From Candidatus Parvarchaeota archaeon (GTDB lineage Archaea; Nanobdellota; Nanobdellia; WJKC01), in assembly GCA_030615175.1 (NCBI GenBank), contig JAUWZX010000001.1, forward strand, positions 588,044 to 652,043: a stretch of 64,000 nucleotides of DNA. Reading direction: 5' to 3'. The notes beneath the pieces were generated by a model, which worked only from the letters and a program-made list of their open reading frames with translations, searched no databases and had not been told where the DNA came from. Shown in pieces: positions 495 to 58,151 of this stretch. The stretch's first letter is position 1; each line of letters opens with the position of its first letter. Position numbers and translations under genes: made by a program.

Positions 495-872
495 ATGGAA
501 ATAAATGACATAATTGAACGCATTAAGGCTCATCCAGGTTACAGACTAAAGGAACAGGATAAGTTATTATTATTCGACCTGCTTAAATGGCACGCGCACA
601 GACTGAATTTTAATGAAGGTATGGAAAAAAATCATGTCCTTTATAATCAGGCAGTAAGTGATTTTGAAAAAATAGGCATATCATTACTTTATAACCAATC
701 AAATTTAAATGCTAAATTAGAGAGAATAGAAACGTCAAGATTTGAAGATAAAATAAGAATAAAAATGCTATACTTGGCTAATAATATTAAGCAACAATAC
801 ATCCAAAATGAATTACGTAAAATGGTAAGCTGTAAATATGATTATTATAATGAATTACTTGAAAAAAACTAA
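495..872 (+). CDS. hypothetical protein
   Basis: 125-aa ORF filling an otherwise ORF-free gap, with an AT-rich promoter-like region upstream. No recognisable motif. Confidence 0.4.
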   Translation: MEINDIIERIKAHPGYRLKEQDKLLLFDLLKWHAHRLNFNEGMEKNHVLYNQAVSDFEKIGISLLYNQSNLNAKLERIETSRFEDKIRIKMLYLANNIKQQYIQNELRKMVSCKYDYYNELLEKN

Positions 873-908
873 CGTTGATGGAAAAAAGAATGGACTAAAC
901 AAAATGAC

Positions 909-1048
909 GGGGCTGTAGTCTAGCCTGGTCTAGGACCCGTGGTTTGGGACCAACCCTTTTCTCGCTTCGCTCCAAAAGCGTTGACGGAAAAGGATTTAAA
1001 ACGTTGGCAGAATACCGCGAGACCCCGGTTCAAATCCGGGCAGCCTCA
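909..1048 (+). tRNA. tRNA-Pro (anticodon UGG) with 65-nt intron at canonical 37/38 position (949..1013)
   Basis: Hand-folded cloverleaf. Acceptor GGGGCTG (909-915) pairs with CAGCCTC (1041-1047, one G-U). D arm GTCT..GGAC. Anticodon stem CGTGG (938-942) pairs with CCGCG (1015-1019). Loop TT-TGG-G gives the anticodon. T arm CCCGG-TTCAAAT-CCGGG (1024-1040), discriminator A1048. The anticodon stem closes only if 949..1013 is removed. Confidence 0.85.
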
Positions 1049-5585: not shown

Positions 5586-6320
5586 ATGGATAGTTTTAAA
5601 TTAAAAGTCAGGCAAGCACTTTGTGAGAGGGATAGGGATAAATTCCGCAACTACTTAAATAATCATCCTGAACTTAAGGATAAATTAAACTACTTTAATA
5701 AGAAAATAAAGAAGGATTTAAAGGATTTTGCTGATAAATTAGTTAAGGATTATGAAAATATCTTAGGCGGCATTAAATTCAATAAGATAAAATCAAAAGA
5801 ATTAATAACAAAAGTTTCTGAGTTAATGTTTAATAAAAATGAAGATTCCTTCACATTAAATGGCATTATTAATTCTTTTGGCAACATATACCTTACTGAT
5901 AGTTCTATTTTCGCGGAATTAAATGATTTAACTGATGAAAAAATTACAGTGCTGGGGTATAGTTCTGATGCTCTTAATGACTATTTTTTAACTTACGAGA
6001 GGATTGTTAGGGAAGTTGTATGGTCTGCTAATGTGTACGGCATCGAGAAAGTCTTAAAGGATGATTTTATCAACATTATTATTAGAAAAGTCATTCCATC
6101 AAAGGAGGATTATAGAAAGCATTTTGAGATGCAGAGGGACTTAGGCAGTAAGTTAATTTCAAAAACCTTAAGTGAAGGTTTGCCTGACATTAATGATAAG
6201 TCTGAATTGAATGCTGTTGCAACTTCAGTCTTTTCTGATTTTAAAAGTATTTACAGCATTATTGAAGAATACTTAGAGAAAATTGTTGAAAAAGACATAG
6301 AACAGATTTATAAATCTTGA
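5586..6320 (+). CDS. hypothetical protein
   Basis: 244-aa ORF, Lys/Asp-rich and helical-looking. No recognisable motif. Confidence 0.45.
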   Translation: MDSFKLKVRQALCERDRDKFRNYLNNHPELKDKLNYFNKKIKKDLKDFADKLVKDYENILGGIKFNKIKSKELITKVSELMFNKNEDSFTLNGIINSFGNIYLTDSSIFAELNDLTDEKITVLGYSSDALNDYFLTYERIVREVVWSANVYGIEKVLKDDFINIIIRKVIPSKEDYRKHFEMQRDLGSKLISKTLSEGLPDINDKSELNAVATSVFSDFKSIYSIIEEYLEKIVEKDIEQIYKS

Positions 6321-6329
6321 AGCGAGATA

Positions 6330-8024
6330 TCAAGTAATTTTAAATGCTTTTAAGAGATTGCTCAAGCTAAGAGTATTAATGACATCCTTCTCCCTTGCCC
6401 AGGCGCGTCGGGCAGTGCCAATGCCTAAACGCATGAATTCAAGATGGCTTGCAGAGTGAGCGTCAGTATTAATGGCTAATTTACATCCTGCCTTTAACGC
6501 CTCCCGCGCGTCAGCATCACTTAAGTCCAGTCGCGCAGGGCAAGCATTAACCTCTAAGTAAGTGCTGGCCCTCTTAGAAGCCTCGAAAACCCTAGGCCAG
6601 TCAAACTCGCAGCCAGTTTTTTGCAGGATTTTCCTTCCAGTAGGGTGAGCAATAATTTTAACGTAAGGATTCTCCATTGCCCTGATTAACCTGTCAGTCA
6701 TTGCCTTACTATTAAGAGAGAATTTAGCGTGGATGCCTGCAACAACGAAGTCAAGCACTTTTAATACCCTGTCATGAACGTCAAGAGAGCCGTCCTCTAA
6801 AATATTAACTTCAGCTCCACGCAGCAATCTGATTCCTGGAATACTCATTTTCTTAATCTCATGCGCTTGCTTAATTAGCTTCCTTTCATTCATGCTGTTA
6901 GCAATCCTTAACTTCCCTGCATGGTCTGTGATTCCGATATACTCATAATTAAGTGACTTGGCTTTCAAAGCCATCTCCTTAATTGAGTTAGCGCCGTCAC
7001 TATAATTAGTATGGCAATGCAAGTCGCCTTTAATAGAGTTATAAGGTATTAATTCAGGGATTTTTTTCATCCGCGCTGCCTGAATCTCACCATGATTCTC
7101 GCGCAGTTCTGGAGGAATGAATTGTAATCCTAATTTATTATAAATTCCTTTTTCAGTCCTGCCGGCAATCATTTTATTATTCTCGAATAAGCCGTACTCT
7201 GATAGTTTAAGCCCTTTTAATTTTGAAATAATTCTTAAAGCAATGTTATGGTCTTTCGAGCCTGTGAAGTACTGTAAGGCAGCTCCGAATGATTCTTCTT
7301 TAATAATTCTTAAATCTGAATTAATGCCTGACTCAAGGCGCACGGAGCACTTGGTTTTACCGCTCGCGATTACTCTGCCAAGCTTTAAGAATGCTTTAAC
7401 AGCATTATCATTCCTCGGGCATACTAGTATGTCAATATCCGCAACTGACTCCTTCATCCTCCTGATAGAACCTGCTATTTCAATTAATTTAGAGTAAGGA
7501 CTTAATTCTTCTTTAATGAATTCTGCTTCTTTTAAGGCATTTAATAATAAGCTTCTTTTCTTCTTCACGTAAGCCATTTTAATGTTTTCTAAAATCAGCT
7601 GTTCTTTACGCTCCTTAAATCCTGAAATCTTCTTAATCCTGCCTTCCTTGGCTGCCTTCTCCAAATCCTTTAATGATTTAATGCCCAGTTCAGCGTGTAA
7701 TTTCTTAACAGTTTTTGGTCCGATTCCTTGAATGTTCATTAAGTCAATGAAGTTGAAAGGAATTTTCTTCATTAACCTGTCATGATGCCTTGACCTGCCT
7801 GTCTTTATTATTTCCTCAATCATTAATGAGATGTTGCGTCCGACGCCTGGAATCTCGTCCAATGCCTTAAGTCCTCCATGTTCATAAATTTTTGAAACAT
7901 CCTCTGACAATCCTTCAATTGACCTTGCAGCGCGAGCGTAAGCCATGGGCTTGAATTGCATGTCAAGGATTTCAAAGGCGTATGAAATTTCTTGAAGAAT
8001 TTTAGAGACAAGAACGTTCTTCAT
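6330..8024 (-). CDS. polX: family X DNA polymerase with C-terminal PHP domain
   Basis: 564 aa. Helix-hairpin-helix motifs (GVGRNISLMI, GIGPKTVKKL), pol-beta nucleotidyltransferase Asp pair (VADIDILV), PHP motifs (GDLHCHTNYSDG, ITDHAG, NTDAHS). Confidence 0.85.
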   Translation of the reverse strand: MKNVLVSKILQEISYAFEILDMQFKPMAYARAARSIEGLSEDVSKIYEHGGLKALDEIPGVGRNISLMIEEIIKTGRSRHHDRLMKKIPFNFIDLMNIQGIGPKTVKKLHAELGIKSLKDLEKAAKEGRIKKISGFKERKEQLILENIKMAYVKKKRSLLLNALKEAEFIKEELSPYSKLIEIAGSIRRMKESVADIDILVCPRNDNAVKAFLKLGRVIASGKTKCSVRLESGINSDLRIIKEESFGAALQYFTGSKDHNIALRIISKLKGLKLSEYGLFENNKMIAGRTEKGIYNKLGLQFIPPELRENHGEIQAARMKKIPELIPYNSIKGDLHCHTNYSDGANSIKEMALKAKSLNYEYIGITDHAGKLRIANSMNERKLIKQAHEIKKMSIPGIRLLRGAEVNILEDGSLDVHDRVLKVLDFVVAGIHAKFSLNSKAMTDRLIRAMENPYVKIIAHPTGRKILQKTGCEFDWPRVFEASKRASTYLEVNACPARLDLSDADAREALKAGCKLAINTDAHSASHLEFMRLGIGTARRAWAREKDVINTLSLSNLLKAFKIT

Positions 8025-8090
8025 AGAAGTTATTTAAACAAGCAAAGGATAAAAAAGTTTTTAGGTTACCATTAATTAAATAATAAGGTT

Positions 8091-8552
8091 ATGGGCATTA
8101 CTATCAGGCCTTCAAGGATTCGGAACATTAATAATTACTTATTATCAGGGGCATTGCTTACAGGAAGCATATTCCTTCACACGATTAATCCATTACTGAC
8201 GATTGCAGGAAGCATTCTGAGCTTGTTACCAACCATTAAGGCTGAAGTCTGGCGCTTAAGCAGGAAGTGCGTTATGCATGACACTGAATTAATCTTTGAG
8301 CAGGGACTCCTCAGGAGGAATAAGAAGAACATCCTGATTTCTAATCTGTACTCAGTGAGCGTGAAGCAGGGCTTGATTGAAAGATTATTTAATTATGGCA
8401 CAGTCACTCTTGGCTCATGGGTTGATGATAACATGGTTCCTACAGAGTTATTCAAGGTCCGGAGGCCTGAAGAAGTCGCTGACCATTTGAACTTTCTTTT
8501 AAAGAAGAATTACTCAGCGCACGTGGAGAAGAGCAGGAAAAGGCAATACTGA
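8091..8552 (+). CDS. membrane protein with bacterial-type PH (bPH_2/YdbT-like) domain
   Basis: 153 aa. Two N-terminal hydrophobic helices, then ..LIFEQGLLRRNKKNILISNLYSVSVKQGLIERLFNYGTVTL, which is typical of bPH_2 domains. Confidence 0.55.
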   Translation: MGITIRPSRIRNINNYLLSGALLTGSIFLHTINPLLTIAGSILSLLPTIKAEVWRLSRKCVMHDTELIFEQGLLRRNKKNILISNLYSVSVKQGLIERLFNYGTVTLGSWVDDNMVPTELFKVRRPEEVADHLNFLLKKNYSAHVEKSRKRQY

Positions 8553-12655: not shown

Positions 12656-13570
12656 TTAAGAAACTGTTTCAGTATATAAATTATCAGATTCGCTTTTAAC
12701 TAATTTTTTAATGAACGCGTTAATCCTGTACTCCCAATCCCGATAATTATCCCTCATCTTCTTGCGCTCCTCCTTGGTTTTTTCTTTATTATTAAAGAAC
12801 ATGGTTAGTGCCTTATCATCAGCAACTAATTTATCCTTCCATTTATAAGAATTTAATGCTTCCTCAAGCTCGTCGTACCCTATTTCACCATCAATAATCT
12901 TCTTTTTTAACAATGTTCTTTTAGGAATCATGCGTTCGGTTAATTTCTTAGAGCTATAATTAATTGATTTACCTCCAAGCAAGCCAGCACCTGCAAGACC
13001 AAGCTCCCAAAGATAGAATTCAAGTGTTGTTATTGTACCCGTATTCATTTTTAAACCAAAAAAGTACACTTCCGCGTTAGCCAGGTTAGGCCATACTCCG
13101 AACAAGTCAGGAATCGGCCTGCCCATTATAGGATACCATATAGTGTCATGTATGAAGAATGCAAGCCCTATAGACCCAGCAAGATAAAAAGCTTTTCTTG
13201 CAAAGTCAACAGGATTCTTAGGCTTACTGCCTACCAGGAAAGCAATGCCAACAGTTGTTGGCAGGAATAAATTAAGATAATGAACTGGACTGATTAATTC
13301 ATGACCATCAACTATTTTTTGCCCAAGAGTGAATAATATCTGGTCAACTGACAGGCTTGACAGCAAAAAAGCTGCAGTGCCGCCAGCAAGATAAGGCATG
13401 GCTTTCCTTAAATTACTCTTCTTTTTTTCAGGCTTGTATATCCCTGGTTTATCAAGCACTTCAACCATGTGCTCCATCAGGGTTGCGTACTCTCCTTCAA
13501 ATTTAACGGTTTTATTAGTGAAATCAACAGTTTCTTCATTAAGCATGGATTCTAATTTTTTACTGACCAT
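12656..13570 (-). CDS. membrane protein with C-terminal charged helical tail
   Basis: 304 aa. Several hydrophobic segments in the middle and a Lys/Glu-rich C-terminal region. Divergent from the ArsA-like pair. Confidence 0.5.
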   Translation of the reverse strand: MVSKKLESMLNEETVDFTNKTVKFEGEYATLMEHMVEVLDKPGIYKPEKKKSNLRKAMPYLAGGTAAFLLSSLSVDQILFTLGQKIVDGHELISPVHYLNLFLPTTVGIAFLVGSKPKNPVDFARKAFYLAGSIGLAFFIHDTIWYPIMGRPIPDLFGVWPNLANAEVYFFGLKMNTGTITTLEFYLWELGLAGAGLLGGKSINYSSKKLTERMIPKRTLLKKKIIDGEIGYDELEEALNSYKWKDKLVADDKALTMFFNNKEKTKEERKKMRDNYRDWEYRINAFIKKLVKSESDNLYTETVS

Positions 13571-13656
13571 AACTTAATCCCTATTGAGAGAGGATATTTA
13601 AGATTTATTGCAATAGAGAAAAATATTTATTCTTGATTGCCTCTTCACTTGACAAT

Positions 13657-15126
13657 ATGAGTTTGGAAAAATTGTTAGATTCAGGGATTAAATTATTATT
13701 ATTCGGCGGTAAAGGAGGTGTTGGCAAGACAACGTGCGCGGTTGCCTGCGGGTTCTACGCTGCTAAGAATAAAGGTCTTAAAACGCTTGTAATATCAACT
13801 GACCCTGCTCACTCGCTCACTGACTCGCTTGACATGCCATATGATAAAGGAATAATAACCAGGGTAATTGATAACTTCTATGCCATACAGTTAGACCCGC
13901 AAAAGAGTTTATGGGACCAGTCATACTTCATGAACCTTCAGATGATTAAGATGTCAATGAATCCTTCATTAAATGAAGCTTACGTGAATTCATCATTAAT
14001 AACTGAAGATAAGATTAAGGAATTAATGGATGAGTTCAGGGATATTGATTTAATCACAATCACTTATTCATTAATCCTTAATAAAGGAGAAATTGATAAT
14101 GCAAAGAAATTAATAAAATACGCTGACAGTAAAGCCGATGAACTTGCTGAAAAAATTAATAATCCTAATTATAAGAGGAATCATGCCATGGCAACCTTAA
14201 TCATGTCTGGAGAGGATTATTCCACTGCAGAAGAAATCAGCAAGGATATCCTTAAGTGCATGCCAATAAACTGTAAGGACTTCTCATTAACTCCAGGGCA
14301 AATGGAGAGGCACTCTTTCAACGTGATTTACTCAATGACTAAATCAATTGATTCAGGTAAAGCGGATTATGACCTTGTTATTATAGACACGGCTCCAACA
14401 GGGCATACTCTTGAAATGCTTTCTCAGGCGCATTTGCTGCGGGATGAAGATGGTTATAGATGGATGATGAAGACTCTTCTTCCTGTTTCATGGACAATAA
14501 TGAAGACTGTTAGGGGCGTGAAAGTAGTTAATAAATTCTTTAAGCGATTACTTGGCAGGGATTCTAAAAAAACAATAGATAAAATACCAGGATTAAGAGA
14601 GCAGTATAAACAATTAAAAGTTCTTGCAGAGGAATTCGCTCCTGTAATGGACTGGTTTTCTGATTGCACGAAAAGTTATTTCATACCAGTAGTGATACCA
14701 ACTGAAATGGCTTTTGAGGAAACACTTGACTTGGTGGGAAGGTTAAGTGAATTTGAATTAGGTTGTTATAAACTCATGGCTCCAAAATCCTATTATGATA
14801 AAAGCATAGGAGAGCATGATTCCTTAAAGTTATTCCATAAGGATTATCCAAGGTATATTATCATGAACTCCCTGCTCTGTAATGAAACAATTGATATAAT
14901 GAAGAGGATAGGAGTCAAGGAATTACCCTCTGAGGACTGCGGGTTCTGCCGGATGCAGGTTTCAGAACATGAATCCATGCTTAAAAAAGTACTTGATTAT
15001 GATTATGACTTAGGCGACACCGTGATATTAATACCAGACCTCCCATGGGAAGTTAGGGGTCTTGAAAGAATCGAGTTATTCTCAAAACTGCTTGTAGAGG
15101 GGGGGGAATTAATTGCCTTTAAGTGA
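13657..15126 (+). CDS. ArsA/Get3-family ATPase, paralog 1 (long helical insert)
   Basis: GGKGGVGKTT P-loop, STDPAHSL, IDTAPTGHTLEM, C-terminal CGFC. ATG 13657 is preferred over the track's TTG 13633. Confidence 0.8.
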   Translation: MSLEKLLDSGIKLLLFGGKGGVGKTTCAVACGFYAAKNKGLKTLVISTDPAHSLTDSLDMPYDKGIITRVIDNFYAIQLDPQKSLWDQSYFMNLQMIKMSMNPSLNEAYVNSSLITEDKIKELMDEFRDIDLITITYSLILNKGEIDNAKKLIKYADSKADELAEKINNPNYKRNHAMATLIMSGEDYSTAEEISKDILKCMPINCKDFSLTPGQMERHSFNVIYSMTKSIDSGKADYDLVIIDTAPTGHTLEMLSQAHLLRDEDGYRWMMKTLLPVSWTIMKTVRGVKVVNKFFKRLLGRDSKKTIDKIPGLREQYKQLKVLAEEFAPVMDWFSDCTKSYFIPVVIPTEMAFEETLDLVGRLSEFELGCYKLMAPKSYYDKSIGEHDSLKLFHKDYPRYIIMNSLLCNETIDIMKRIGVKELPSEDCGFCRMQVSEHESMLKKVLDYDYDLGDTVILIPDLPWEVRGLERIELFSKLLVEGGELIAFK

Positions 15127-16255
15127 ATTACTGGATAAGAAGCTTGTCGTATTCTGCGGTAAAGGAGGTGTTGGGAAAACCACTATTGCATCATCCTTTT
15201 CAGTTGGTGCTAGTGATGAAGGCAGGAAAACCCTTATAGTGTCAATAGACCCTGCTCACTCGCTTAGCGACTGCTTCGGAGTTAAATTAGACCACACGAT
15301 AAGGAATGTGAAGGATAACTTGGATGCTGTTGAACTTGAGTCGAGAGTTCAATTCTGGGAGCAGTTAAAGGATTTCAAGAATGAGGTTGGATTAACAGAT
15401 AAGGAGTTCCCAATCCCCAAGAACTGGAGAGAAGTTAAGATAGGAGTCGGTCAGAATGAGTCCCATGCTTTCATGGCAATATCTGACTTGCTTTTAAGCA
15501 GTTCATTAAGCAAGGAGTATGACTTATTCATTATTGACACTGCACCAACAGGTCACACTCTCAAATTGCTTGGCTTAACTAAATACTTCTCAACATATCA
15601 GGGAAGAGTTGAACTGCGCTCATGGAAGAGAGGGGATGCGTGGAGGAAGATGACTAAAAGGAAATCCAACCCGCACGCGTATAAGCTTAGAGTTGATAAT
15701 ACATTAAAAAATTTAATGAACTACTTCTCTAATCCTGAATTAACATGTTTTATTCCAGTATTCATTCCAACTGAAATGGCAATAAATGAAACCTTAAGGC
15801 TTATTGAAGAATTATTTGACATCTTTACTAATTATAGGTCATTACTTGATGGAGAGGATTATGATTTCATCGCTCCTTTTGACCCTATGTTCATGGCAGC
15901 TAAAGTGCATTTTGGAAGGTTTGACTTGTTGAATGGCGCGACTGTTGGAGAATTAATAAATGAAATTATAGAGGATAAGAATAAGAAAGAGCCAAGGAAG
16001 TATTTCATTTTGAACATGATGAGTGGCGGCGAGGAGGATGGAATTCTTGAATCCTTTGGCTTTCCAGGAAGATGTTCATGTACTTACTGTGATTCAAAGA
16101 AGCGTGACGCGGAGAAAAACTTGAAGTACTTTATAGAAAACTTTAATGAATTATCTGATAATCATGAATTAATAAGGGTGCCTTACTTCCCAAGAGAAGT
16201 TAAGGGTATTAACATGCTCAGAACCTGCTACAAAGTCCTGTCAGGTGAAGTTTAA
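15113..16255 (+). CDS. ArsA/Get3-family ATPase, paralog 2
   Basis: GKGGVGKTT, SIDPAHSL, IDTAPTGHTLKL, C-terminal CSCTYC. TTG start overlaps paralog 1 by 14 nt. Confidence 0.75.
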   Translation: MPLSELLDKKLVVFCGKGGVGKTTIASSFSVGASDEGRKTLIVSIDPAHSLSDCFGVKLDHTIRNVKDNLDAVELESRVQFWEQLKDFKNEVGLTDKEFPIPKNWREVKIGVGQNESHAFMAISDLLLSSSLSKEYDLFIIDTAPTGHTLKLLGLTKYFSTYQGRVELRSWKRGDAWRKMTKRKSNPHAYKLRVDNTLKNLMNYFSNPELTCFIPVFIPTEMAINETLRLIEELFDIFTNYRSLLDGEDYDFIAPFDPMFMAAKVHFGRFDLLNGATVGELINEIIEDKNKKEPRKYFILNMMSGGEEDGILESFGFPGRCSCTYCDSKKRDAEKNLKYFIENFNELSDNHELIRVPYFPREVKGINMLRTCYKVLSGEV

Positions 16256-16281: not shown

Positions 16282-17424
16282 ATGCATTCAATAATCATTC
16301 ATTATGCTGAAATAGGATTAAAGAAAGGCAAGAGAGCTTTTTTTGAGAATAAATTAATGCATAACATTGAGAAAAAAACAGGGTTCAGGCCTGAAAGGCA
16401 TTATGGTAGTTTAATAATTGATGGCGTAAGCCAGAAAAAGTATGAATTAATTAAGAATGAATTAAGTAACACGCCGGGCATAGCATACTTCTGCCATGCA
16501 TTAAAGGCAACTTTAACAATTAATTCAATCATTAATAAAGCAGGCAAATTATTAGGTAAGAATAAAACATTCAAGGTAGTAACCAAGCGCTCTAATAAGG
16601 CATTCAAGCATACTTCAATTGAAGTGAATAAATTAGTCGGCGAGCACTTCTATAACAAAGGATTTAAAGTTGACGTTCACAATCCAGAGCAGAGATTATA
16701 CATTGAAGTGATTGAGAGGAATGCTTATGTTTATATTGAGAAAATCAGTGGGTTGGGCGGGCTGCCTGTCGGCTCAAGCGGCAAGTTATTATTACTTGTT
16801 TCTGGAGGCATTGACTCGCCAGTAAGTGCTTATTACATGATGAAGCGCGGGTGCAGGATTGAATTCATTCACTTTTATAATGAGAAGGCAGGCGTTAAGG
16901 AAAAAATAATTGAATTAGTTAAAATACTGTCAAAATTTCAGGGCAGGTCAATTATTTACTTAATTCCATTCAGGGACATTCAGAAGGAAATCATTCTTAA
17001 GACTCCTAGTGATAAGCGCATGATTATTTACAGGCGCTTAATGCTCAGGATTGCTGAAAGAATTGCAGAGCAAATAAAAGCCAAGGGACTCATTACTGGC
17101 GACAGCGCAGGACAAGTCGCCAGCCAGACGCTTGATAACCTGAGAGTTATTTGGAATGCAGCGTCCCTGCCTGTTTACGCTCCACTCATCGGCTTTGATA
17201 AGGAGGAAATAATTAATATTGCGAGGAGGATTGGGACTTATGAAACGAGCATACTGCCTTACAGTGACTGCTGCAGTTACCTCGTCGCCAAGCATCCTGA
17301 GACAAGAGCTAAGTTAGAAGACATAGAGAGAATTGAGAAGAGATTAAACATAGAAAGGTTAGTGAATAAAGGACTGAGAAATAAGGAAATCATTCATACC
17401 AGATTGCTTCCAACCCTTTTATGA
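16282..17424 (+). CDS. thiI: tRNA 4-thiouridine synthase ThiI
   Basis: 380 aa. THUMP-type N-terminal half and PP-loop LLVSGGIDSPV. The last codons and the stop lie in the repeat/insert at 17392..17459. Confidence 0.85.
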   Translation: MHSIIIHYAEIGLKKGKRAFFENKLMHNIEKKTGFRPERHYGSLIIDGVSQKKYELIKNELSNTPGIAYFCHALKATLTINSIINKAGKLLGKNKTFKVVTKRSNKAFKHTSIEVNKLVGEHFYNKGFKVDVHNPEQRLYIEVIERNAYVYIEKISGLGGLPVGSSGKLLLLVSGGIDSPVSAYYMMKRGCRIEFIHFYNEKAGVKEKIIELVKILSKFQGRSIIYLIPFRDIQKEIILKTPSDKRMIIYRRLMLRIAERIAEQIKAKGLITGDSAGQVASQTLDNLRVIWNAASLPVYAPLIGFDKEEIINIARRIGTYETSILPYSDCCSYLVAKHPETRAKLEDIERIEKRLNIERLVNKGLRNKEIIHTRLLPTLL

Positions 17425-17478
17425 AAAGCGTTGACGGAAAAAAAGAAAGGAAAGATTCTATTCATACCAGATTGCTTC
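17392..17478. repeat. 19-bp direct repeats (17392..17410, 17460..17478) flanking a 49-bp intron-like insert
   Basis: ATTCATACCAGATTGCTTC occurs twice. The insert 17411..17459 begins CAACCCTTTTATGAAAAGCGTTGACGGAAAA, the core shared with the tRNA-Pro and tRNA-Ser introns. Confidence 0.85.
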
Positions 17479-18723
17479 TATTGGGTCCAGCTTCGCTGCC
17501 TTGCGGGCAGGGAGTAATCCTGAAATAACGCCGATTCCAACACTGAAGGATAATGCTAAAACAATTAATTCAGTTGTTATTGAAATTGCAATCTGTACGC
17601 CTGACGGCATATCAGTAATAACGCCAGCATTAATTACAAAGGCTAATCCATTTGCAATAAGCAGTCCTAAGCTAATGCCGACCAAGCCGCCAATCAAGCT
17701 CATAATACCTGCTTCAGTAATGAATAATAATAAAATGTCATTACTTTTAGCGCCAACAGCCTTCATAATGCCAATCTCGCGAGTGCGTTCATAAACACTA
17801 GTGAACATTGAGTTAGCAATGCCGACAGCACCGACTAATAAACTAATAGCGGCGATGCCAGCAAGGAAGGAAGTAAACAAGCCAGTGATTGATAGAACAG
17901 TTTCCATAATGCTTGCATAAGTAAAAACTTGGAAGTCATCCTCCTTCGTTTTATGAAGCCTTCTTAAAGTCTTAGTAATACTCTCCACTAATGCTGGCAC
18001 GTCATCAACAGTCTTAGCTTTTACTTCAATAACGTCAAATGTGTCATCAAACTCAGGAACAAACTTCTTTACAACATTAAGATTAATAAAAATGTAATTA
18101 TCAATAGTGACAAATCCGCCACCCTCCTCTTCTAAAATGCCAATAACCCGCACATTACTTCCTTCAATATTGAAAACATCACCAACATGAAGTTCATTAG
18201 TGAAGAATTCATGAGCCGCTTTGTAACCAAGCAGGGCAACGAACTGGTCTGACTTGGAGAGCAAGCGCCCGTCAATAACTTTAGGGTCTTCAAGAGCCTT
18301 GAAAGCGTCTGGATCTACAAAAGTTGTTGTGACTCCAGCAACCTCACCTCTATAAGTAATTTCAAACTCTTCCTGCACAGTGTAACCAACAGCCTCGACT
18401 TTAGGAAGTTTTGATATTGCTTGAACATCCTTTAATGTTAAAGTACTCTTACCAGCCGTCATTGTAAACTGCGCTTCACCAATCCCATGAGGGTCCATAC
18501 TCCTTCCTATAACCCTGCTTGAACCGCCAGGGGATATAATTATATTCTCAGAACCAAGAGCGCCTAATTGACTAAGAATTACTTCCTGAATCCCTCCGCC
18601 AAAAGAGATTAAACCAACCACTGAGGCAATGCCAATGACGATGCCGATAATTGTTAACCAACTCTTAAGCCTGCGGTAAGCTAAGTTCTTAAAAGTAATT
18701 GTTAAGACATCATCAAACTTCAT
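17458..18723 (-). CDS. ABC transporter permease, FtsX/MacB type
   Basis: N-terminal TM, large extracytoplasmic domain, three C-terminal TMs. Start moved to ATG at 18721-18723 (MKFDDVL..), 2 nt after the upstream stop. Confidence 0.8.
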   Translation of the reverse strand: MKFDDVLTITFKNLAYRRLKSWLTIIGIVIGIASVVGLISFGGGIQEVILSQLGALGSENIIISPGGSSRVIGRSMDPHGIGEAQFTMTAGKSTLTLKDVQAISKLPKVEAVGYTVQEEFEITYRGEVAGVTTTFVDPDAFKALEDPKVIDGRLLSKSDQFVALLGYKAAHEFFTNELHVGDVFNIEGSNVRVIGILEEEGGGFVTIDNYIFINLNVVKKFVPEFDDTFDVIEVKAKTVDDVPALVESITKTLRRLHKTKEDDFQVFTYASIMETVLSITGLFTSFLAGIAAISLLVGAVGIANSMFTSVYERTREIGIMKAVGAKSNDILLLFITEAGIMSLIGGLVGISLGLLIANGLAFVINAGVITDMPSGVQIAISITTELIVLALSFSVGIGVISGLLPARKAAKLDPIEAIWYE

Positions 18724-18725
18724 CT

Positions 18726-19982
18726 TCACTTCCTCTTCCTTTTTGACTTTAAGAAGAAGTAAAGAAGCATTACGATTACAGCGATTAATATTATTGCACC
18801 TGAATTCCCGAGTAACCATTCAGGCAGCCAGGCGAATCTGATTCCACTAGCATCCATTACCGGCGCGTAACCTAAGTAAATACTCTCAGTGAAATTATAA
18901 TTAATCCTCTCACCTAACTGGTTAGTGTAACTGAGTTCAAAGATTAATTCAATGCTTCCTTGCTTTTCAGGAATGAATGAGAAACTCGAGCTCGTGAAGT
19001 CACCAGAGTCTAAGTCACCAATGTAATCCTCACGAACATTCTTCAACGCAATATCTTGACTGGAGTGTAATTTAATACTAACTGAATCTGCATCCATGAT
19101 GCCTGTATTAGCAATGCTTAGTATAACTGCAGTGTCAGTGCCATTAACGATTAATTCAGGATCAATATCCTGAATAAAGACTTCAAAAGTTGAGTTGCCT
19201 CCAACAATGACTCCGAAATCACCAAGTAATGAGTAATGATTATCACTATCCTTATCATAAGTTAAGTTAATGGCTATTGCGTGAACGCCTGGCAGTAAGG
19301 ACTTGTCAGAAACAAGTTCGAAAAGGACTTCCTTCACTTCTGAAATGCTTAGGTTGCCAATGCTTGCAATGTTAGGTGCGCTGTAAGTACTGAATGAAGT
19401 GGAATTAATCCTCACTTTTGTATTGCTTGCATTAAAACTGCCTGAGTTCTCAATACTTAGTGTCGCGTTAAACTTCTGCCCTGGATTAATTACTTCAGGA
19501 TTAGTGACTGCCTTATTAATAATTAAGTCAGGCTTTATCTCATTATTCTCAATCCTTAGGATTTCATGCTTGTAAACGTACTTTGTCAGTTCAGTGCTAG
19601 AAGTACTATTATAAGAAATGTAACGTATTAGGAATTCAGCAAGGTAGTACCCGGTACTAATATTGACTGGGATGCTAATCTCGTAAGTTATGTCTTTAGC
19701 GTCGTTACCGTAGACGTCGCCCATTTGATAATAACATTCCTGCGCGTAATTAAGGCAGAACTTCCTTGTAGTACTGTATACCATACAATTAGTGCATACC
19801 CTGCTGGAGCTTAATGGCTCGTCAAGTCTTGTGAAACTTATTTCAGTGCTGTACGCTGGCTGGGCTCCGTCATTACTTAAACTAATGGTTATGTAGCCAG
19901 TTTCTCCTGGCTTCATATTAGTTGTTGATGAGTTAACTTGGATTACCGGGTATACGGGCGTTGCTGCAAGAGCGCAACTCAT
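18726..19982 (-). CDS. cell-surface protein with repeated beta-sandwich (COG1361/CARDB-like) domains and C-terminal TM anchor
   Basis: 418 aa, Ser/Thr/Asn-rich repeats, C-terminal hydrophobic helix plus KSKRKRK. The true N-terminus is uncertain (see finding at 19983..20027). Confidence 0.6.
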   Translation of the reverse strand: MSCALAATPVYPVIQVNSSTTNMKPGETGYITISLSNDGAQPAYSTEISFTRLDEPLSSSRVCTNCMVYSTTRKFCLNYAQECYYQMGDVYGNDAKDITYEISIPVNISTGYYLAEFLIRYISYNSTSSTELTKYVYKHEILRIENNEIKPDLIINKAVTNPEVINPGQKFNATLSIENSGSFNASNTKVRINSTSFSTYSAPNIASIGNLSISEVKEVLFELVSDKSLLPGVHAIAINLTYDKDSDNHYSLLGDFGVIVGGNSTFEVFIQDIDPELIVNGTDTAVILSIANTGIMDADSVSIKLHSSQDIALKNVREDYIGDLDSGDFTSSSFSFIPEKQGSIELIFELSYTNQLGERINYNFTESIYLGYAPVMDASGIRFAWLPEWLLGNSGAIILIAVIVMLLYFFLKSKRKRK

Positions 19983-20001: not shown

Positions 20002-20700
20002 CTAATTATGATTTTTCTTATCTGAAATCACCTTACCGTCAAGCATTCTAATGGTGCGCGGAGCTTCTTCCGCTATTATCGGGTCATGTGTTACAATGAT
20101 TAATGTATTCCCTTTATGCCATAATTCCTTAAATACTTTAACAATTCCTCTCCCTGTCTTTGAGTCAAGGTTGCCTGTCGGCTCGTCAGCAAGTATTATC
20201 TTTGGTTCATTAGCGAGTGCGCGTGCAATTGCTATCCTCTGCCTCTCACCGCCTGATAATTGGTAAGGCAGGTGGTGAATCCTTTTACTTAAGCCGACTA
20301 AGTCCAGCAACTTCTTTGCTGATTCATACCTGCTCTTCTCCTCCTTGTTTGCGAATATCATTGGTAATTCAATGTTTTCAACTGCTGTTAAGTTAGGCGT
20401 TAAGTAGAAGAATTGGAATATGAATCCAATATTTTCATTCCTCAGTCTTGTTCTTTCGTTATCATTTAATTCTGAATGGTTTAAGCCGTTAAGCATTACT
20501 TTGCCGTGAGTTGGCTTGTCCAGTAATCCAATTACGTGCATTAATGTGCTCTTGCCGCACCCTGAAGGGCCGAAGATTGTTACGAATTCTCCTTCATAAA
20601 TCTTTAAGTTAACGCCGTCAACTGCTTTAACAATATTATCCTCTCCTAAGGAGAAGTGCCTTTTCACATTCTTTAATTCAATTATTAGCTTTCCTTTCAT
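20002..20700 (-). CDS. ABC transporter ATP-binding protein (MacB/LolD-like)
   Basis: Walker A GPSGCGKST, signature LSGGERQR, Walker B ILADEPT. Confidence 0.9.
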   Translation of the reverse strand: MKGKLIIELKNVKRHFSLGEDNIVKAVDGVNLKIYEGEFVTIFGPSGCGKSTLMHVIGLLDKPTHGKVMLNGLNHSELNDNERTRLRNENIGFIFQFFYLTPNLTAVENIELPMIFANKEEKSRYESAKKLLDLVGLSKRIHHLPYQLSGGERQRIAIARALANEPKIILADEPTGNLDSKTGRGIVKVFKELWHKGNTLIIVTHDPIIAEEAPRTIRMLDGKVISDKKNHN

Positions 20701-21119
20701 AAATCAAGCACTACCTGCACAGTGAATCCTTGCTTTGTTTTCTTTATTTCCATGTCAAAGTAAGTTATTGCTTTAACACTGCTCCTGCGTTCATGAGCAT
20801 CCTTTACTCTCTCTCCTTTAACGATTGCCTTTAATGAATAATTTTTTTCATCTAATTCAACGCTGAACTTGCTTAGGAATACGTTTCTGGCTTCATGCAG
20901 GTATAATAATTCCTCCAGGAAGTCGTATAATAATGATTTCAAGTCTTCTGATTTCTTCTTAAAAGTGAATTTTAATTCAGGCTTCACTGCCTTAATATCA
21001 GTCATTATTTCAGACATTGCGTAGCCCGCGTTCTCAAATGCTTGTGCAATGGTTTTACCGTAAGCCCTGAACATCAGGTCCGCAGTTGCGAGTTCTGAAT
21101 CAATTTCAAATCGTTTCAT
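20697..21119 (-). CDS. archease
   Basis: About 140 aa from ATG 21117-21119 (MKRFEIDSELATADLMFRAYGKT..KAITYFDMEI..). Size and motifs fit archease, the RtcB cofactor. ATGA overlap with the ABC ATPase gene. Confidence 0.7.
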   Translation of the reverse strand: MKRFEIDSELATADLMFRAYGKTIAQAFENAGYAMSEIMTDIKAVKPELKFTFKKKSEDLKSLLYDFLEELLYLHEARNVFLSKFSVELDEKNYSLKAIVKGERVKDAHERRSSVKAITYFDMEIKKTKQGFTVQVVLDL

Positions 21120-21206
21120 AAAGAGTAACAAAGCAATTCCTGATTATTAAGTTTATACCATTGCTTAGCGAAAAGTATTAAAATCCATTATTTTAATTAT
21201 CATTAC

Positions 21207-35039: not shown

Positions 35040-36500
35040 ATGCAATGGCAAACAAGTGAGGGAATTGAATTAAAAGAGGTTTCAGAACATAAATGGATGA
35101 TTCCTAAGTCAGGTAAGATGAAGGTTCCTGCAGTAGTATTCGCATCAAAAAAATTGCTCGGCCAGATAAGGAAGGATAGGACGCTCGCTCAGTTGAGGAA
35201 CATGACTGAATTACCAGGGATTTACAAGCACGCAATATGCCTTCCAGACGGGCATCAAGGATACGGTTTCCCGATTGGAGGAGTCGCTGCATTAGATTTC
35301 CATAACGGAGGCATTAGTCCTGGCGGCATTGGGTATGACATTAATTGCGGCGTCAGGATGTTCAGAACTAATTTGAGGAAGGAAGATGTAGTGCCGAGAA
35401 TTAATGAATTAATTAATATTATTTATAATAATGTGCCTTCAGGCGTTGGAGTGGGCGGAAAGCTTGGCAGGATACCGGTCAATGAATTAAACAAAGTTCT
35501 GGATTACGGTGCTAAATGGGCGCTTGATAAAGGGTATGCCTGGAAGGAGGACTTAATGTGTACAGAGGATAATGGTTCACTGGAGGGAGATCATAATCTT
35601 GTTTCGCGGAGAGCGATTGAGCGCGGCAGACCTCAACTTGGCAGTTTAGGGGCTGGCAATCACTTCCTTGAAATCCAAGTAATTGATAAAATATATAATC
35701 CTGAAGTCGCCAGGGCATTCGGCATTGAGAGTGAGGGGCAGGTGACTGGAATGATTCACTGCGGTTCAAGAGGTTTAGGGCATCAAGTGTGCAGTGACTA
35801 CTTAAGGATGATGGAGCGCGCTCAGCCTGAAATAGTTAAATCCTTGCCTGACAGGGAGTTAATTTATGCTCCAGCAGGCAGTAAGATGGCTGGTGATTAC
35901 TTCAAAGCGATGAATGCAGCGGCTAATTACGCCTGGACTAACAGGCAGTTAATACTTCACTGGGTCAGGGAGTCATTCGAATCAGTGTTTAAGAAGAAGG
36001 CTGAGGATTTAGGAATGCATCAAATCTATGATGTGTGCCATAATATCTGCAAGGTTGAAGAGCATGAAGTGGACGGCAGGAAAATTAAAGCATTCGTTCA
36101 CAGGAAGGGAGCGACGAGGGCGATGCCTAAGGGGCACCCGTTAGTTCCTAAAGTTTATGAGGGTGTTGGGCAGCCAGTACTGATTCCCGGCACCATGGGC
36201 ACTGCCAGTTACTTACTGGTTGGCGGTGAGGAGTCGCTTAAGGAAACTTTCGGCTCAACTGCTCACGGAGCTGGAAGAATCATGTCAAGGCATGCAGCAG
36301 CCAAGAAGTACTGGGGTGAGAATATTAAGAAAGAGTTAATGAGTAAGGGAATAATTGTTAAGGCGCGCAGCATGAGAGGCGTTTCCGAAGAGTCGCCTGG
36401 AGCGTATAAGGATATTGATGAAGTAGTGAGAGTCAGTGATGCTTTAGGCATTGGCAGATTAGTGGCAAGAGTTGTTCCTGTAGGAGTTATTAAGGGTTAA
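35040..36500 (+). CDS. rtcB: RNA-splicing ligase RtcB
   Basis: 486 aa. GYDINCGVRM, HCGSRGLGHQ, PGTMGTASY, STAHGAGR motifs. Confidence 0.9.
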   Translation: MQWQTSEGIELKEVSEHKWMIPKSGKMKVPAVVFASKKLLGQIRKDRTLAQLRNMTELPGIYKHAICLPDGHQGYGFPIGGVAALDFHNGGISPGGIGYDINCGVRMFRTNLRKEDVVPRINELINIIYNNVPSGVGVGGKLGRIPVNELNKVLDYGAKWALDKGYAWKEDLMCTEDNGSLEGDHNLVSRRAIERGRPQLGSLGAGNHFLEIQVIDKIYNPEVARAFGIESEGQVTGMIHCGSRGLGHQVCSDYLRMMERAQPEIVKSLPDRELIYAPAGSKMAGDYFKAMNAAANYAWTNRQLILHWVRESFESVFKKKAEDLGMHQIYDVCHNICKVEEHEVDGRKIKAFVHRKGATRAMPKGHPLVPKVYEGVGQPVLIPGTMGTASYLLVGGEESLKETFGSTAHGAGRIMSRHAAAKKYWGENIKKELMSKGIIVKARSMRGVSEESPGAYKDIDEVVRVSDALGIGRLVARVVPVGVIKG

Positions 36501-53119: not shown

Positions 53120-53256
53120 CGCCAGGGGCAGGATTTTCCCAACCATTTGTTCTTTTCCGTCAACGCTTTTTTTAAAAGGGTTGTTTTGAACCTGCGCGAG
53201 ATTTCTCTCACTCGCTTTCGAGGCGAGCGCCTTAAACCGGGCTTGGCTACCCTGGC
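53120..53256 (-). tRNA. tRNA-Ser (anticodon CGA) with 51-nt intron in the T-loop (53134..53184)
   Basis: Reverse complement folds as acceptor GCCAGGG/CCCTGGC, D arm GCC..GGC, anticodon arm CTCGC-CTCGAAA-GCGAG, long variable arm TGAGAGAAATCTCG, T stem GCAGG/CCTGC, discriminator G. The T-loop TTCAAA[51 nt]T is interrupted at about position 59/60. Confidence 0.8.
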
Positions 53257-56446: not shown

Positions 56447-56540
56447 GCCTCGGTAGCTCAGTTGGTCAGAGCGGTGGTCTTGTAAGAACCTTTTTTTTCA
56501 GGATAACCACAGGTCGCCGGTTCGAATCCGGTCCGGGGCT
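56447..56540 (+). tRNA. tRNA-Thr (anticodon UGU) with 20-nt intron at 37/38 (56485..56504)
   Basis: Acceptor GCCTCGG/CCGGGGC (one G-U), D arm GCTC-AGTTGGTCA-GAGC, anticodon stem GTGGT (56474-56478) / ACCAC (56506-56510), loop CT-TGT-A, T arm GCCGG-TTCGAAT-CCGGT, discriminator T. Confidence 0.85.
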
Positions 56541-57912: not shown

Positions 57913-58151
57913 ACGCCGGGTGTTCTAAGGCGATTCCAATATTTAAAAACTACCCACGCCGAGAACGAGTGCTAAAAACCCTTGAAACCTTCGGGCCTGT
58001 GGGCGTTGACGTTTTACGAATCCTTCTTGGACTAACACGCTCTCAAGTATGGAAAATTTTAAAGTCGCTAGAAAGTCACTGCCAAGCCCAAGTCATCACA
58101 AAGAAGAAAGTAAGTTACTGGGGCGTTAATTCCGGAAAGGAGGTTAAGTGA
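57909..58151 (+). CDS. winged-helix protein
   Basis: 80 aa. ..RVLKTLETFGPVGVDVLRILLGLTRSQVWKILKSLESHCQAQVI... Confidence 0.5.
   Translation: MNAGCSKAIPIFKNYPRRERVLKTLETFGPVGVDVLRILLGLTRSQVWKILKSLESHCQAQVITKKKVSYWGVNSGKEVK

Follow-up and report, generated by a model that had tools for sequence, protein, structure and literature searches.

A short hairpin module shared with archaeal tRNA introns lies in a duplicated target between convergent thiI and permease genes

Similar introns found in unrelated tRNAs raised the question of how introns reach new positions. Transposing archaeal tRNA introns were described in the Thermoproteales (Fujishima et al. 2010, summarised in PMC4090602), and the 2014 review that treats them states the mechanism of archaeal intron movement as unknown (PMC4090602). 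A mobile-element model of tRNA gene disruption with a 1.8-kb recombinase-encoding element (Sugahara et al. 2012, PMC3293823) and a statistical survey of direct repeats at intron borders, without empty sites (Rogers and Bendich 2025, PMC11782384), share the argument that the introns of archaea are brought in by DNA insertion, which leaves direct repeats or tRNA fragments behind; neither describes the hairpin module reported here (hereafter E). Like the transposing introns, as far as these are summarised in the review, E is one module found in different tRNAs, namely at the canonical position (37/38) of a tRNA-Pro and in the T-loop of a tRNA-Ser. It differs from them in that only the 5′ 31 nt and not a whole intron are common, in its hosts (DPANN-like and ANME-1-like archaea instead of Thermoproteales), and in being present beyond RNA genes as well, where it comes with an empty site and a target duplication, whereas the summarised literature has intron-to-intron spread only.

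Several families of mobile elements share individual traits with E. Eukaryotic introners are MITE-like DNA transposons that create spliceosomal introns and duplicate their target; the likeness would be that of a non-autonomous DNA element making new introns on landing in a transcribed gene. Introners have terminal inverted repeats and fixed-length duplications supplying the splice sites, whereas E has one internal hairpin, variable duplications, and BHB splicing. As in MITEs, E occurs in many dispersed copies with presence/absence polymorphism, but its arms are internal, with the conserved tail and then the variable spacer behind them, instead of forming terminal inverted repeats, and its target duplications have no fixed length (0, 19, 13 to >40 nt). 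With REP/REPIN sequences, which are served by RAYT (HUH Y1) enzymes, E shares the form of a short imperfect palindrome, one foot of which bears a conserved tetranucleotide, a large number of dispersed copies that often sit at the ends of genes or between convergent ones, and a non-autonomous state in which any enzyme would act in trans. REP sequences are bacterial, extragenic, and species-specific, and neither intron formation nor the duplication of long targets is known for them, in contrast to E; no RAYT-like gene was found in the 64 kb examined. Ogata and colleagues reportedly described, in 2000, Rickettsia palindromic elements (RPE) as small selfish elements lying in frame in protein genes and in RNA genes, to which the 33-nt E in PaREP1 genes and the E in the rpS4 tail can be compared; RPE differ in being 100–150 bp long, bacterial, and not linked to splicing. 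Insertion sequences of the IS1634/IS1549 type produce long, variable direct repeats and are a precedent for DNA transposition that duplicates tens to hundreds of target bases, but they are autonomous DDE elements of 1.5–2 kb with terminal inverted repeats.

The window, i.e., the whole stretch of 64,000 nt that was analysed, contains the 19-mer ATTCATACCAGATTGCTTC exactly twice, both times on the plus strand (T1 and T2, Table 1), with a 49-nt insert between the copies. This direct duplication had been proposed from the sequence alone (hereafter the original prediction), and its coordinates were confirmed exactly; the chance expectation for the repeat is 0.03, and none of 100 shuffles contained two or more matches. 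The insert consists of E and an A/G-rich spacer (x), and it does begin with the tRNA-intron core, as had been proposed: a covariance model (R1) run over the window retrieved the E at the junction and the copies in the two tRNA introns at 47–52 bits (Table 1), the next best match reaching 13.9 bits. A derivation of x from the 3′ parts of the tRNA-Ser or tRNA-Pro introns was rejected, the similarity not being significant. Regarding a duplication longer than 19 nt, a comparison of x with the sequence preceding T1 was not significant (P = 0.55), and the similarity of x to the upstream flank of a related locus, L001, is suggestive only (P = 0.014). No useful microhomology was found at the junctions of the insert.

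Table 1 Positions of the genes, target copies, and E copies in the window
Feature	Position	Strand	Basis or remark
Probable half-E remnant ACGTTGATGGAAAAAAGAATGG	872..893	+	By eye; like 3′ half of E plus spacer
E copy, 5′ end of 65-nt canonical (37/38) intron of tRNA-Pro(TGG)	951..991	+	47.4 bits; gene 909–1048, intron about 949–1013
thiI, tRNA 4-thiouridine synthase, 380 aa	16282..17424	+	ORF and Pfam ThiI, E = 3.8e-71
T1, left target copy ATTCATACCAGATTGCTTC	17392..17410	+	Homologous to the single-copy overlap GTCACTCGTACCAAATAGCTTC of L001
E, conserved hairpin module	17411..17441	+	51.3 bits, E = 8.6e-14, covariance model R1
x, variable A/G-rich spacer AAAGAAAGGAAAGATTCT between E and right repeat	17442..17459	+	
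T2, right target copy	17460..17478	+	Minus strand: functional last six permease codons
MacB/FtsX-type ABC permease, 453 aa	17458..18819	-	Pfam MacB_PCD and FtsX
E copy, 5′ end of roughly 51-nt T-loop intron of tRNA-Ser(CGA)	53153..53183	-	52.0 bits; gene 53256..53120, intron about 53184..53134

Both thiI and the permease gene are complete ORFs without removal of the insert, the exact removal of which would recreate a gene overlap and not repair any gene. The ORF call agrees with the original prediction in placing the end of thiI inside the insert: T1 now codes for the ThiI tail IHTRLL on the plus strand, and the protein ends ..HTRLLPTLL, with its last six residues (LLPTLL) arising by read-through from T1 into E and the stop TGA lying within E (17422–17424). 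On the minus strand, the permease, whose FtsX domain extends to residue 446 of 453 (Pfam), ends in EAIWYE plus TAG (cta, 17458–17460), the stop being made up of the last two bases of x and the first base of T2, while T1 holds an orphan permease end, again EAIWYE but followed by TGA (tca, 17390–17392). Both of these endings are as originally read.

Comparison of the thiI-permease junction in relatives, as recommended at the outset, revealed an empty site. The locus L001 (ThiI 70% identical) has the same gene order and no insert; its thiI and permease genes overlap by 17 nt, and its permease orthologue ends in the same EAIWYE. L158 (ThiI 94% identical) has the structure T-E-T-E-T, i.e., two repeat-E units and a further repeat, with a period of 62 and 97% identity, both E copies scoring 45–52 bits and the spacer (AGGGAAGGTTCT) having diverged from x. 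Its 94%-identical ThiI orthologue (P0001) has 374 aa and stops at a TAG inside T1. This TAG is present in L001 and in T1 and T2 of L158, and TTG stands in its place in T3 of L158 and in both window copies.

These alleles show that E with a short spacer entered the thiI/FtsX-permease overlap in an ancestor common to the window organism and L158, and that the insertion duplicated the overlapped 19–21 nt, so that each gene kept its own 3′ end, thiI in the left copy and the permease in the right copy. The permease-side copy later gained a synonymous GCT-to-GCA change, which reached the left copy in the window lineage, by mutation or by conversion between the repeats, and there turned the thiI TAG into TTG; ThiI therefore ends six codons later at the TGA inside E. 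In L158, amplification gave two repeat-E units in tandem. The insert had originally been held to rewrite the ThiI C-terminus, which is correct in that ThiI now ends inside it, but the cause was the later TAG-to-TTG change and not the insertion. Similarly, deleting the insert and one repeat in silico does extend thiI by the predicted 16 codons, up to a TAA, but this does not restore the ancestral state because the ancestral TAG lies inside the duplicated 19-mer. The thiI/permease empty site comes from a single outgroup, L001, where it could in principle be a secondary loss by recombination between two repeats.

A second empty/filled pair was found among PaREP1 alleles, which are 98–99% identical and differ by a clean 33-nt in-frame E with a target duplication of 0 nt. 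Three substitutions lie just 3′ of this insertion, and E could have spread here by gene conversion between paralogues rather than by transposition. The two pairs provide filled and empty sites for a module that heads archaeal introns. On the favoured reading, they show that E moves at the DNA level, independently of BHB splicing, and that its junctions are exact at the 5′ foot and vary on the 3′ side, where 0 to >40 nt of target are copied again; the question of how archaeal introns reach non-canonical positions thereby becomes testable. At the thiI/permease junction, the evolutionary consequence was that overlapping convergent genes were separated, ThiI received a new C-terminal tail, and a repeat-element unit started tandem amplification.

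E is laid out as CAACCCTTTT, a variable stem top or loop, AAAAGCGTTG, and ACGGAAAA. The copy at the junction (31 nt) comprises a stem of CAACCCTTTT and AAAAGCGTTG with one C.C mismatch and the loop ATG (17411–17433), followed by the conserved tail ACGGAAAA (17434–17441). Across copies, E is a 10-bp stem with the C.C mismatch and an invariant ACGG(AAAA) tail; the stem top is variable in length (3 to about 60 nt) and includes covarying pairs. Covariation was detected in the upper stem (50 copies), and compensatory variants of the base stem occur (CAAG/CTTG, TAAC/GTTA, AGC/GCT). Stem pairing was found in 92.4% of cells compared to 85.6% in shuffles (reached in 0 of 500) and at most 51% when the stem was slid. 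At the junction, the hairpin is the minimum-free-energy fold, and its thermodynamic stability as RNA is low (−5.1 kcal/mol, z = −1.4). The suspicion that this copy is truncated or dead was not upheld, as no part of the conserved module is missing and its score is on a par with those of the intron copies; it is without the intron-specific 3′ part, as are most non-tRNA copies elsewhere.

For the distribution of E, metagenome contigs were scanned with the exact 18-mer and with the covariance model, yielding at least 60 copies in archaeal contigs. Among the matches listed, CAACC lies upstream of the 18-mer in 60 of 120, and 60 matches of at least 40 bits were obtained in the first 100 loci; conservation of the 18-mer part is by construction, since the metagenome sample was selected on it. 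Near-identical E sequences were found in very different archaea. Copies are located in tRNA and 16S introns, inside an archaeal SSU rRNA, in tRNAs or beside their ends, near an archaeal RNase P RNA, at the ends of genes, and, in frame, within PaREP1 genes. At 8 of 52 sites, E is directly flanked by a repeat of 13 nt or more, in contrast to 0 of 822 random control sites, with lengths from 13 to over 40 nt; the repeat ends 0–5 nt from CAACC, and the E tail is separated from the second copy by 11–70 nt. The intact gene copy is on the spacer side in 11 of the 12 metagenomic cases with an identifiable gene, a count that is small and partly by eye and has a counter-example in the tRNA-Ala of L100. 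Comparison of the T-E-x-T copies revealed no 3′ end that is conserved among them.

A kb-scale integrated element was rejected, as no distant second repeat copies were present on the contigs. A viral origin was likewise rejected: a scan of IMG/VR for the 18-mer returned eight matches, which are taken as chance because all of them are without the 5′ arm, and E had no blastn match in phage or plasmid collections. Rfam reported nothing at any E copy, at gathering thresholds or at E <= 1. No match for the E core sequence was found in a literature search, in which CAACCCTTTT alone returned unrelated primer matches only. Pfam searches of the 60 window ORFs detected no reverse transcriptase, transposase, integrase, tyrosine recombinase, or Y1_Tnp, and when the ORFs lying up to 3 kb from E at 58 loci were clustered all against all, no family was common except the PaREP1 genes with an in-frame E.

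Unlike the junction copy, both tRNA copies are parts of introns. For tRNA-Pro, a BHB can be read from the sequence (H = TTTG/CAGA, bulges GG|A and AT|A, h′ = CCAAC/GTTGG), and in the fold of tRNA-Ser both the acceptor stem and the T stem are closed, and CAACC is paired to the distal GGUUG. The distal GGTTG of both tRNA introns is absent from the thiI/permease insert, and folding of 17385–17485 on both strands yielded no closing helix, whose absence had been noted originally, and no BHB (z = +1.5 and +0.25). E at this junction is not an intron because no BHB can form; of the features of archaeal BHB introns, it has sequence kinship to bona fide introns, and neither a BHB nor a need for removal. 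The label intron-like thus holds for the core common to the tRNA introns, but the direction is probably the reverse: the tRNA introns probably contain a copy of a general hairpin element that is widely dispersed, and not vice versa.

We give about even chances to the reading that E is a tiny non-autonomous archaeal hairpin element, mobile at the DNA level, which inserted here and was mobilised in trans. A putative enzyme recognising the hairpin would mobilise it, the best guess being a hairpin-binding single-strand nuclease or transferase of the HUH type (RAYT or IS200/IS605 TnpA). This candidate is suggested by the architecture alone, i.e., the imperfect palindrome, the conserved 4-nt tail, and the one precise end; to our knowledge, HUH transposons make no target duplications. 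The process would be polar, with an exact joint between the target and the 5′ foot of the hairpin and an imprecise 3′ junction made via replication restart or repair, which may add the variable spacer and re-copy target (0 nt in PaREP1, 19–21 nt here, up to >40 nt elsewhere). Selection would retain only events leaving genes intact, which would be why duplications at protein and tRNA gene termini reach the gene end, and inside tRNA or rRNA genes only sense copies forming a BHB with a distal GGTTG would survive, as introns. Whether E is in addition the archaeal counterpart of eukaryotic introners, a roughly 30-nt hairpin DNA element that seeds BHB introns via polar mobilisation in trans, is a tentative proposal to which we lend somewhat less than even weight. 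If true, sense landings in tRNA or rRNA genes would create new BHB introns while protein genes and gene ends are also hit, and the thiI/permease copy, through its empty site and 19-nt duplication, would directly record how the ‘transposition’ of archaeal introns takes place.

Ahead of the other alternatives, and still unlikely, is retroposition, by which E RNAs with a defined 5′ end, made by tRNA processing (excised and possibly circularised introns, or RNase Z 3′ trailers), would be reverse-transcribed with target priming at nicked DNA. It predicts target duplications of varying length, a far end that likewise varies, and no protein encoded in cis, and the observed duplications of 0 to >40 nt with one sharp and one ragged end are those of non-LTR retroposons and SINE-like elements. 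Furthermore, E begins 0–3 nt past several tRNA 3′ ends and at 5′ splice sites, where processing makes RNA 5′ ends, the spacer after E is A/G-rich here, and RtcB and archease are encoded within the window. However, the 60 window ORFs include no reverse transcriptase, and target priming makes the junction of the RNA 3′ end precise, whereas here the sense-strand 5′ end is precise, so that the template would need to be antisense RNA. Antisense insertions adjoining tRNAs occur as well (L115, L122, L125, L144, L145), and the inserted piece is not a whole excised intron, its 3′ part having no relation to the tRNA introns.

Replicative template switching without a dedicated enzyme is quite unlikely. 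Hairpins are known to stall replication, and a nascent strand stalled in the thiI/permease overlap might have copied E, for example from a tRNA intron, switched back to a point upstream of the stall, and re-copied 19–21 nt, which would account for variable duplications, filler sequence, and the tandem T-E arrays. The 5′ boundary of E is nevertheless constant (CAACCC, within 3 nt) at dozens of unrelated sites and organisms, which random microhomology switches would not produce; the junctions offer no useful microhomology, the spacer does not come from the two in-window donors, and the conservation of E far exceeds that of passive filler.

A similarly low probability is assigned to E being a folded-hairpin site of a site-specific recombinase, comparable to an integron attC or a hairpin attP/dif-like site, with recombination at E instead of transposition. 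The attC-like inverted boxes (CAAC...GTTG), the unpaired C.C in the folded strand, a second conserved box pair, and the variable terminal structure of 3 to about 60 nt agree with it, as do arrays of T-E units and shuffled flanks, with upstream flanks common to L039 and L040 and to L061 and L075, and a downstream flank common to L040 and L075. In addition, a hybrid E in L064, with a GGAC 5′ arm and a GTTG 3′ arm, lies beside a GGAC/GTCC copy. The R boxes do not fit RYYYAAC/GTTRRRY, however: only the 4 bp of CAAC/GTTG are complementary, GTTGACG does not conform to GTTRRRY, and the sequence flanking E on the 5′ side is target, which varies. A location at cassette 3′ ends beside an integron integrase was not found either, as the window encodes no integrase, no tyrosine recombinase is present in the window or enriched near E, and copies reside in introns and coding sequences. 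Recombination at such a site does not by itself duplicate 19 nt of arbitrary target, and E also occurs as a clean 33-nt in-frame insertion.

That E is an immobile, host-selected motif is very improbable. It would be a bidirectional terminator or a 3′-end stabiliser un-overlapping convergent genes, duplicated locally, ancestral, and lost in L001. On the minus strand, E and x place TTTCTTTTTTT, from x, immediately after the permease stop, E is about twofold enriched just downstream of same-strand ORFs (22% vs 11% at random sites), and direct repeats permit precise loss. Against this stand the two independent empty/filled pairs, the copies within tRNA, rRNA, and coding sequences, where a terminator would harm, the near-identical sequence in very different archaea, and the fact that no bacterial-type terminator was called at the thiI/permease E. 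A chance repeat or an assembly artefact, the latter named as a possible refutation from the outset, is practically negligible in view of the shuffles and of the independent assembly from another sample (L158) with the same repeat-insert-repeat architecture.

Regarding the tRNA introns themselves, degenerate copies of the 5′ exon end were noted at intron 3′ ends; they are suggestive by eye for tRNA-Ser and the 16S intron and absent in canonical introns. The half-E remnant has an ORF stop on one side and the start of tRNA-Pro, at its 5′ end, on the other, and the call of this remnant is weak because it scores only 8.5 bits with R1. Both intron-bearing tRNAs of the window were missed by standard tRNA finders, and E is thus also a practical annotation problem.

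The 19-mer ATTCATACCAGATTGCTTC occurs in exactly two copies in the window (17392-17410 and 17460-17478, both on the plus strand), and allowing up to three mismatches yielded no further copy in the window. The copies are separated by 49 nt (CAACCCTTTTATGAAAAGCGTTGACGGAAAAAAAGAAAGGAAAGATTCT), in agreement with the positions and insert length of the original prediction, and a check of the open reading frames bore out its reading of both strands: thiI crosses the left copy and ends in the insert, the right copy encodes the end of the convergent FtsX-type permease on the minus strand, and the left copy encodes EAIWYE again on that strand, followed by TGA. The insert had also been described as starting with a tRNA-intron core, and its first 31 nt (17411-17441), henceforth called E, indeed recur inside two tRNA genes of the window. 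Pfam assigned ThiI/THUMP to the thiI product as well as MacB_PCD and FtsX to the permease, in which the FtsX domain reaches residue 446 of 453; the repeat therefore represents the canonical extreme C-terminus of the permease. Directly upstream of thiI, genes for two ArsA/Get3-like ATPases of 497 and 380 aa sit side by side (13633-16252), and a weak snoR98-like Rfam match at 13550-13682 (E = 0.18) is probably due to chance.

A chance repeat or artefact was rejected, as two matches were reached in 0 of 100 shuffles (expectation 0.03) and the same insertion is present in a relative. An empty site was found in L001, the closest genome in the species-representative collection (labelled Candidatus Parvarchaeota archaeon, ThiI 70% identical) and the sole empty-site outgroup for this locus. 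Its gene order is that of the window, and thiI (6001..7134) and the permease gene (7118..8380) overlap by 17 nt with no sequence in between (...GTCACTCGTACCAAATAGCTTCTATAGG...); 17 of 22 positions align with the left flank and repeat of the window, and no E was detected in 13 kb (covariance model R1, filters off). The L001 permease stop is TGA, as after the unused left copy of the window, and the thiI stop (TAG) falls inside the segment duplicated in the window. Hence, the predicted extension of thiI by 16 codons upon in-silico deletion is arithmetically correct but does not describe the ancestral state. The ENA contig L158 (protein P0001, 374 aa, ThiI 94% identical) carries the insertion at the same place as a tandem T1-E-T2-E-T3, T being the duplicated target (TRF: period 62, 2.3 copies, 97% identity; E copies with 51.5 and 45.2 bits in R1). 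Its T1 and T2 read ...CCAGATAGCTTC and so keep the ancestral TAG as thiI stop; the permease-side copy T3 has ...CCAGATTGCTTC, as do both window copies.

E thus entered a formerly continuous sequence, and the duplicated target comprises 19 nt, possibly 21 or more. The comparison of L001 and L158 leads to an order of four events: insertion and duplication took place once the L001 lineage had branched off and before window and L158 separated; a GCT to GCA change, synonymous for the permease, arose in the permease-side copy; in the window lineage, this change also came into the left copy via mutation or inter-repeat conversion, destroying the thiI stop and adding LLPTLL; and the repeat-E unit was amplified in L158.

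Coordinates of genes and loci associated with E (strand and remarks where available)
Feature	Position or locus	Strand	Remark
thiI	16282..17424	+	through left repeat copy; TGA 17422-17424; tail ..IHTRLLPTLL
Permease	17458..18819	-	end EAIWYE-TAG within right repeat copy
tRNA-Pro(TGG)	909-1048	+	65-nt intron at canonical 37/38 position, contains E
tRNA-Ser(CGA)	53256..53120	-	~51-nt intron in T-loop, contains E
Filled PaREP1 alleles	L163 512-540, L038 304-332
Empty PaREP1 alleles	L160/L161 around 826
Repeat to tRNA 3' end	L115, L122, L125, L144, L145
Repeat to tRNA 5' part	L081, L060
Repeat to start codon	L133, L136
Repeat to last codons of antisense ORF	L048, L086, window

In the E hairpin, a stem of CAACCCTTTT and AAAAGCGTTG, interrupted by one C.C mismatch, has a variable top and is followed by the invariant tail ACGGAAAA. 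R1 was built from an alignment of 50 distinct E copies, in which 92.4% of pair cells hold standard pairs vs 85.6% in shuffles (reached by 0 of 500), dropping to at most 51% once partners were slid. Both-side changes were observed in 51 cells (19.7 expected), all within the variable upper stem; diverged copies additionally show compensatory changes in the basal stem (CAAG/CTTG, TAAC/GTTA, AGC/GCT). With filters off, R1 gave three strong hits in the window and no more (52.0, 51.3, and 47.4 bits), everything else scoring at most 14 bits. The thiI copy (51.3 bits) is therefore a complete E and not the truncated copy that had been suspected; the 3' closing helix was correctly noted as absent, since this copy lacks only the intron-specific distal GGTTG, which forms the outer helix of the bulge-helix-bulge (BHB) motif with CAACC in the tRNAs. 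A half-E-like sequence (ACGTTGATGGAAAAAAGAATGG, 872-893), located after the stop of ORF 495-872 and ahead of the tRNA-Pro 5' end, resembles the E 3' half and the tRNA-Ser intron spacer, and is not significant (8.5 bits in R1).

Neither ARAGORN nor the Rfam gathering run picked up the tRNA-Pro gene, for which the Rfam E-value run alone gave a match (39.9 bits); its BHB, read by eye, is perfect (H = TTTG/CAGA, bulges GG|A and AT|A, outer helix CCAAC/GTTGG). The tRNA-Ser gene escaped ARAGORN as well as Rfam at either threshold and was recognised by sequence and fold, with acceptor and T stems closing (z = -2.3). At thiI/permease, an intron was rejected, given that no BHB can be drawn at the thiI copy, the insert region folds no better than shuffles on either strand, and both genes are intact without splicing. 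The window also encodes archease (20700-21131, on the minus strand like the permease and three genes downstream of it) and RtcB (35040-36497, plus strand), i.e., tRNA-splicing ligase cofactor and ligase; this, together with an archease gene next to E in L039/L040, is probably coincidence.

An exact scan of metagenome contigs with the 18-mer AAAAGCGTTGACGGAAAA returned at least 120 loci, and among the matches listed, 60 of 120 had CAACC(C)TTTT within 45 nt upstream; many of the remaining ones are E with a larger stem top according to R1. The first 100 loci gave 99 R1 matches at E <= 0.01, 60 of them at 40 bits or more. Matches on viral contigs were rejected as chance, being devoid of the 5' arm, and E had no match in phage or plasmid collections or in Rfam. 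Rfam annotation of 20 E loci identified archaeal SSU and LSU rRNA, one archaeal RNase P RNA, and many tRNAs; E is both widespread and archaeal. Within this set, preselected by the 18-mer and with gene contexts partly read by eye, E resides in tRNA introns (canonical, D-arm, and T-loop sites, always in sense orientation), 0-3 nt past the 3' ends of tRNAs or antisense to such ends, immediately behind the stops of protein genes (L039/L040, past the archease gene), and inside coding sequences. On the reverse strand of L100, an E-headed intron of ~138 nt lies inside archaeal 16S rRNA after ...GCAAGGCTGAAAC, and its end ..AAGGTTGGCGGCAAAC is a loose repeat of the end of the 5' exon (AAGGCTGAAAC); the operon holds additional E-like copies, one of them a diverged E after the spacer tRNA-Ala, and 75 nt beyond this E lies an orphan copy of the final 20 nt of that tRNA. 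Three diverged copies abut directly in L046 (2854-2947), three copies lie within 220 nt in L074 (2008-2231), and L064 (1682-1960) has three copies of GCAGAGGTAGCTAA with two differing E variants in between, one of which looks hybrid (5' arm GGAC, 3' arm GTTG). Since flanks are shuffled among four loci (upstream archease gene common to L039/L040, upstream tRNA to L061/L075, downstream flank to L040/L075), E sits at synteny breakpoints.

The search for further copies with flanking duplications succeeded in the metagenome contigs, with lengths from 13 to more than 40 nt. Among sites with full flanks, a direct repeat (score >=13, ending at most 5 nt from CAACC and recurring within 160 nt downstream) abutted E at 8 of 52 metagenomic sites vs 0 of 822 random control positions on the same contigs; additional cases were found among long-stem-top and diverged copies. 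The first repeat copy lies 0-5 nt from the hairpin 5' foot, and the tail ACGGAAAA is separated from the second by 11-70 variable nt, some being subfamily-specific second hairpins. Where a gene is recognisable, the repeat starts at the insertion point and extends approximately to the gene end (see table). In 11 of 12 metagenomic cases (a small count, partly read by eye), the intact gene is the one beyond the spacer, and the hairpin foot is touched by the orphan fragment, the L100 tRNA-Ala being the single mirror case. Tandem repeat-E arrays exist in L158, L133, and L064. Repeats in the flanks are a trait of the E family, and the arrangement is polar.

PaREP1-family genes (PF05942; source names indicate ANME-1/Methanophagales), which provide a further pair of filled and empty sites, hold E in frame (VQ[TQPFKKALTEN]ASQKLWGA). 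Alleles that are 98-99% identical differ solely by the 11-residue block, and R1 matches the filled alleles, not the empty ones. At the DNA level, the filled alleles have 33 nt cleanly inserted (ACA + 29-nt E + T) without target duplication, and three substitutions cluster within 6 nt directly 3' of it. E proper is consequently ~30 nt long, and target duplication is frequent, not obligatory. In more distant homologues the block is patchy, and more distant paralogues have it at the same position, perhaps through homing, through gene conversion, or because site-specific insertion recurred.

As a module, E is discrete, structured, and dispersed, with presence/absence polymorphism. The rival explanations considered were a non-mobile functional motif, attC-like hairpin recombination, replicative template switching, and target-primed retroposition of processed E RNAs. 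attC sites are defined by R boxes and integrase context, and E has neither; MITEs are defined by terminal repeats and fixed-length duplication, both likewise missing in E. We favour E as a non-autonomous DNA-level mobile element whose hairpin would be recognised by a trans-acting enzyme; no mobility gene was detected in cis among the window ORFs (Pfam) or near E in the metagenome loci. The 5' foot junction would be made precisely, and the other via repair or replication restart, with filler added and 0 to more than 40 nt of target re-copied; selection would then retain events regenerating intact genes and, in RNA genes, sense copies able to form a BHB. By analogy with REP/RAYT or IS200/IS605, an HUH-type hairpin-binding nuclease is our best guess at the enzyme class, because an imperfect palindrome is combined with a conserved tetranucleotide and one end alone is precise. 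HUH-class members are not known to make duplications. Functionally, E is like bacterial REP elements, Rickettsia palindromic elements, and eukaryotic introners, and we rate it as akin to small non-autonomous mobile elements and mobile archaeal introns, no prior description having been found in the searchable literature. Related ideas are direct repeats at intron borders (PMC11782384) and tRNA disruption by a recombinase-encoding element (PMC3293823). There is a realistic chance that E at thiI/permease is the footprint of the intron-gain mechanism itself. One might speculate that the locus benefits, the convergent genes being un-overlapped and a T-run following right after the permease stop.

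Elsewhere in the window, GC falls to 25-27% at 24-28 kb and 42-44 kb, where ORFs are without family match. The tRNA-Tyr gene (56447-56540) has a short, unrelated intron, and within 2 kb after it lie a D5_N/DUF5906 primase-helicase-like gene (58148-59764) and several ORFs without Pfam match; this region may be an integrated element.
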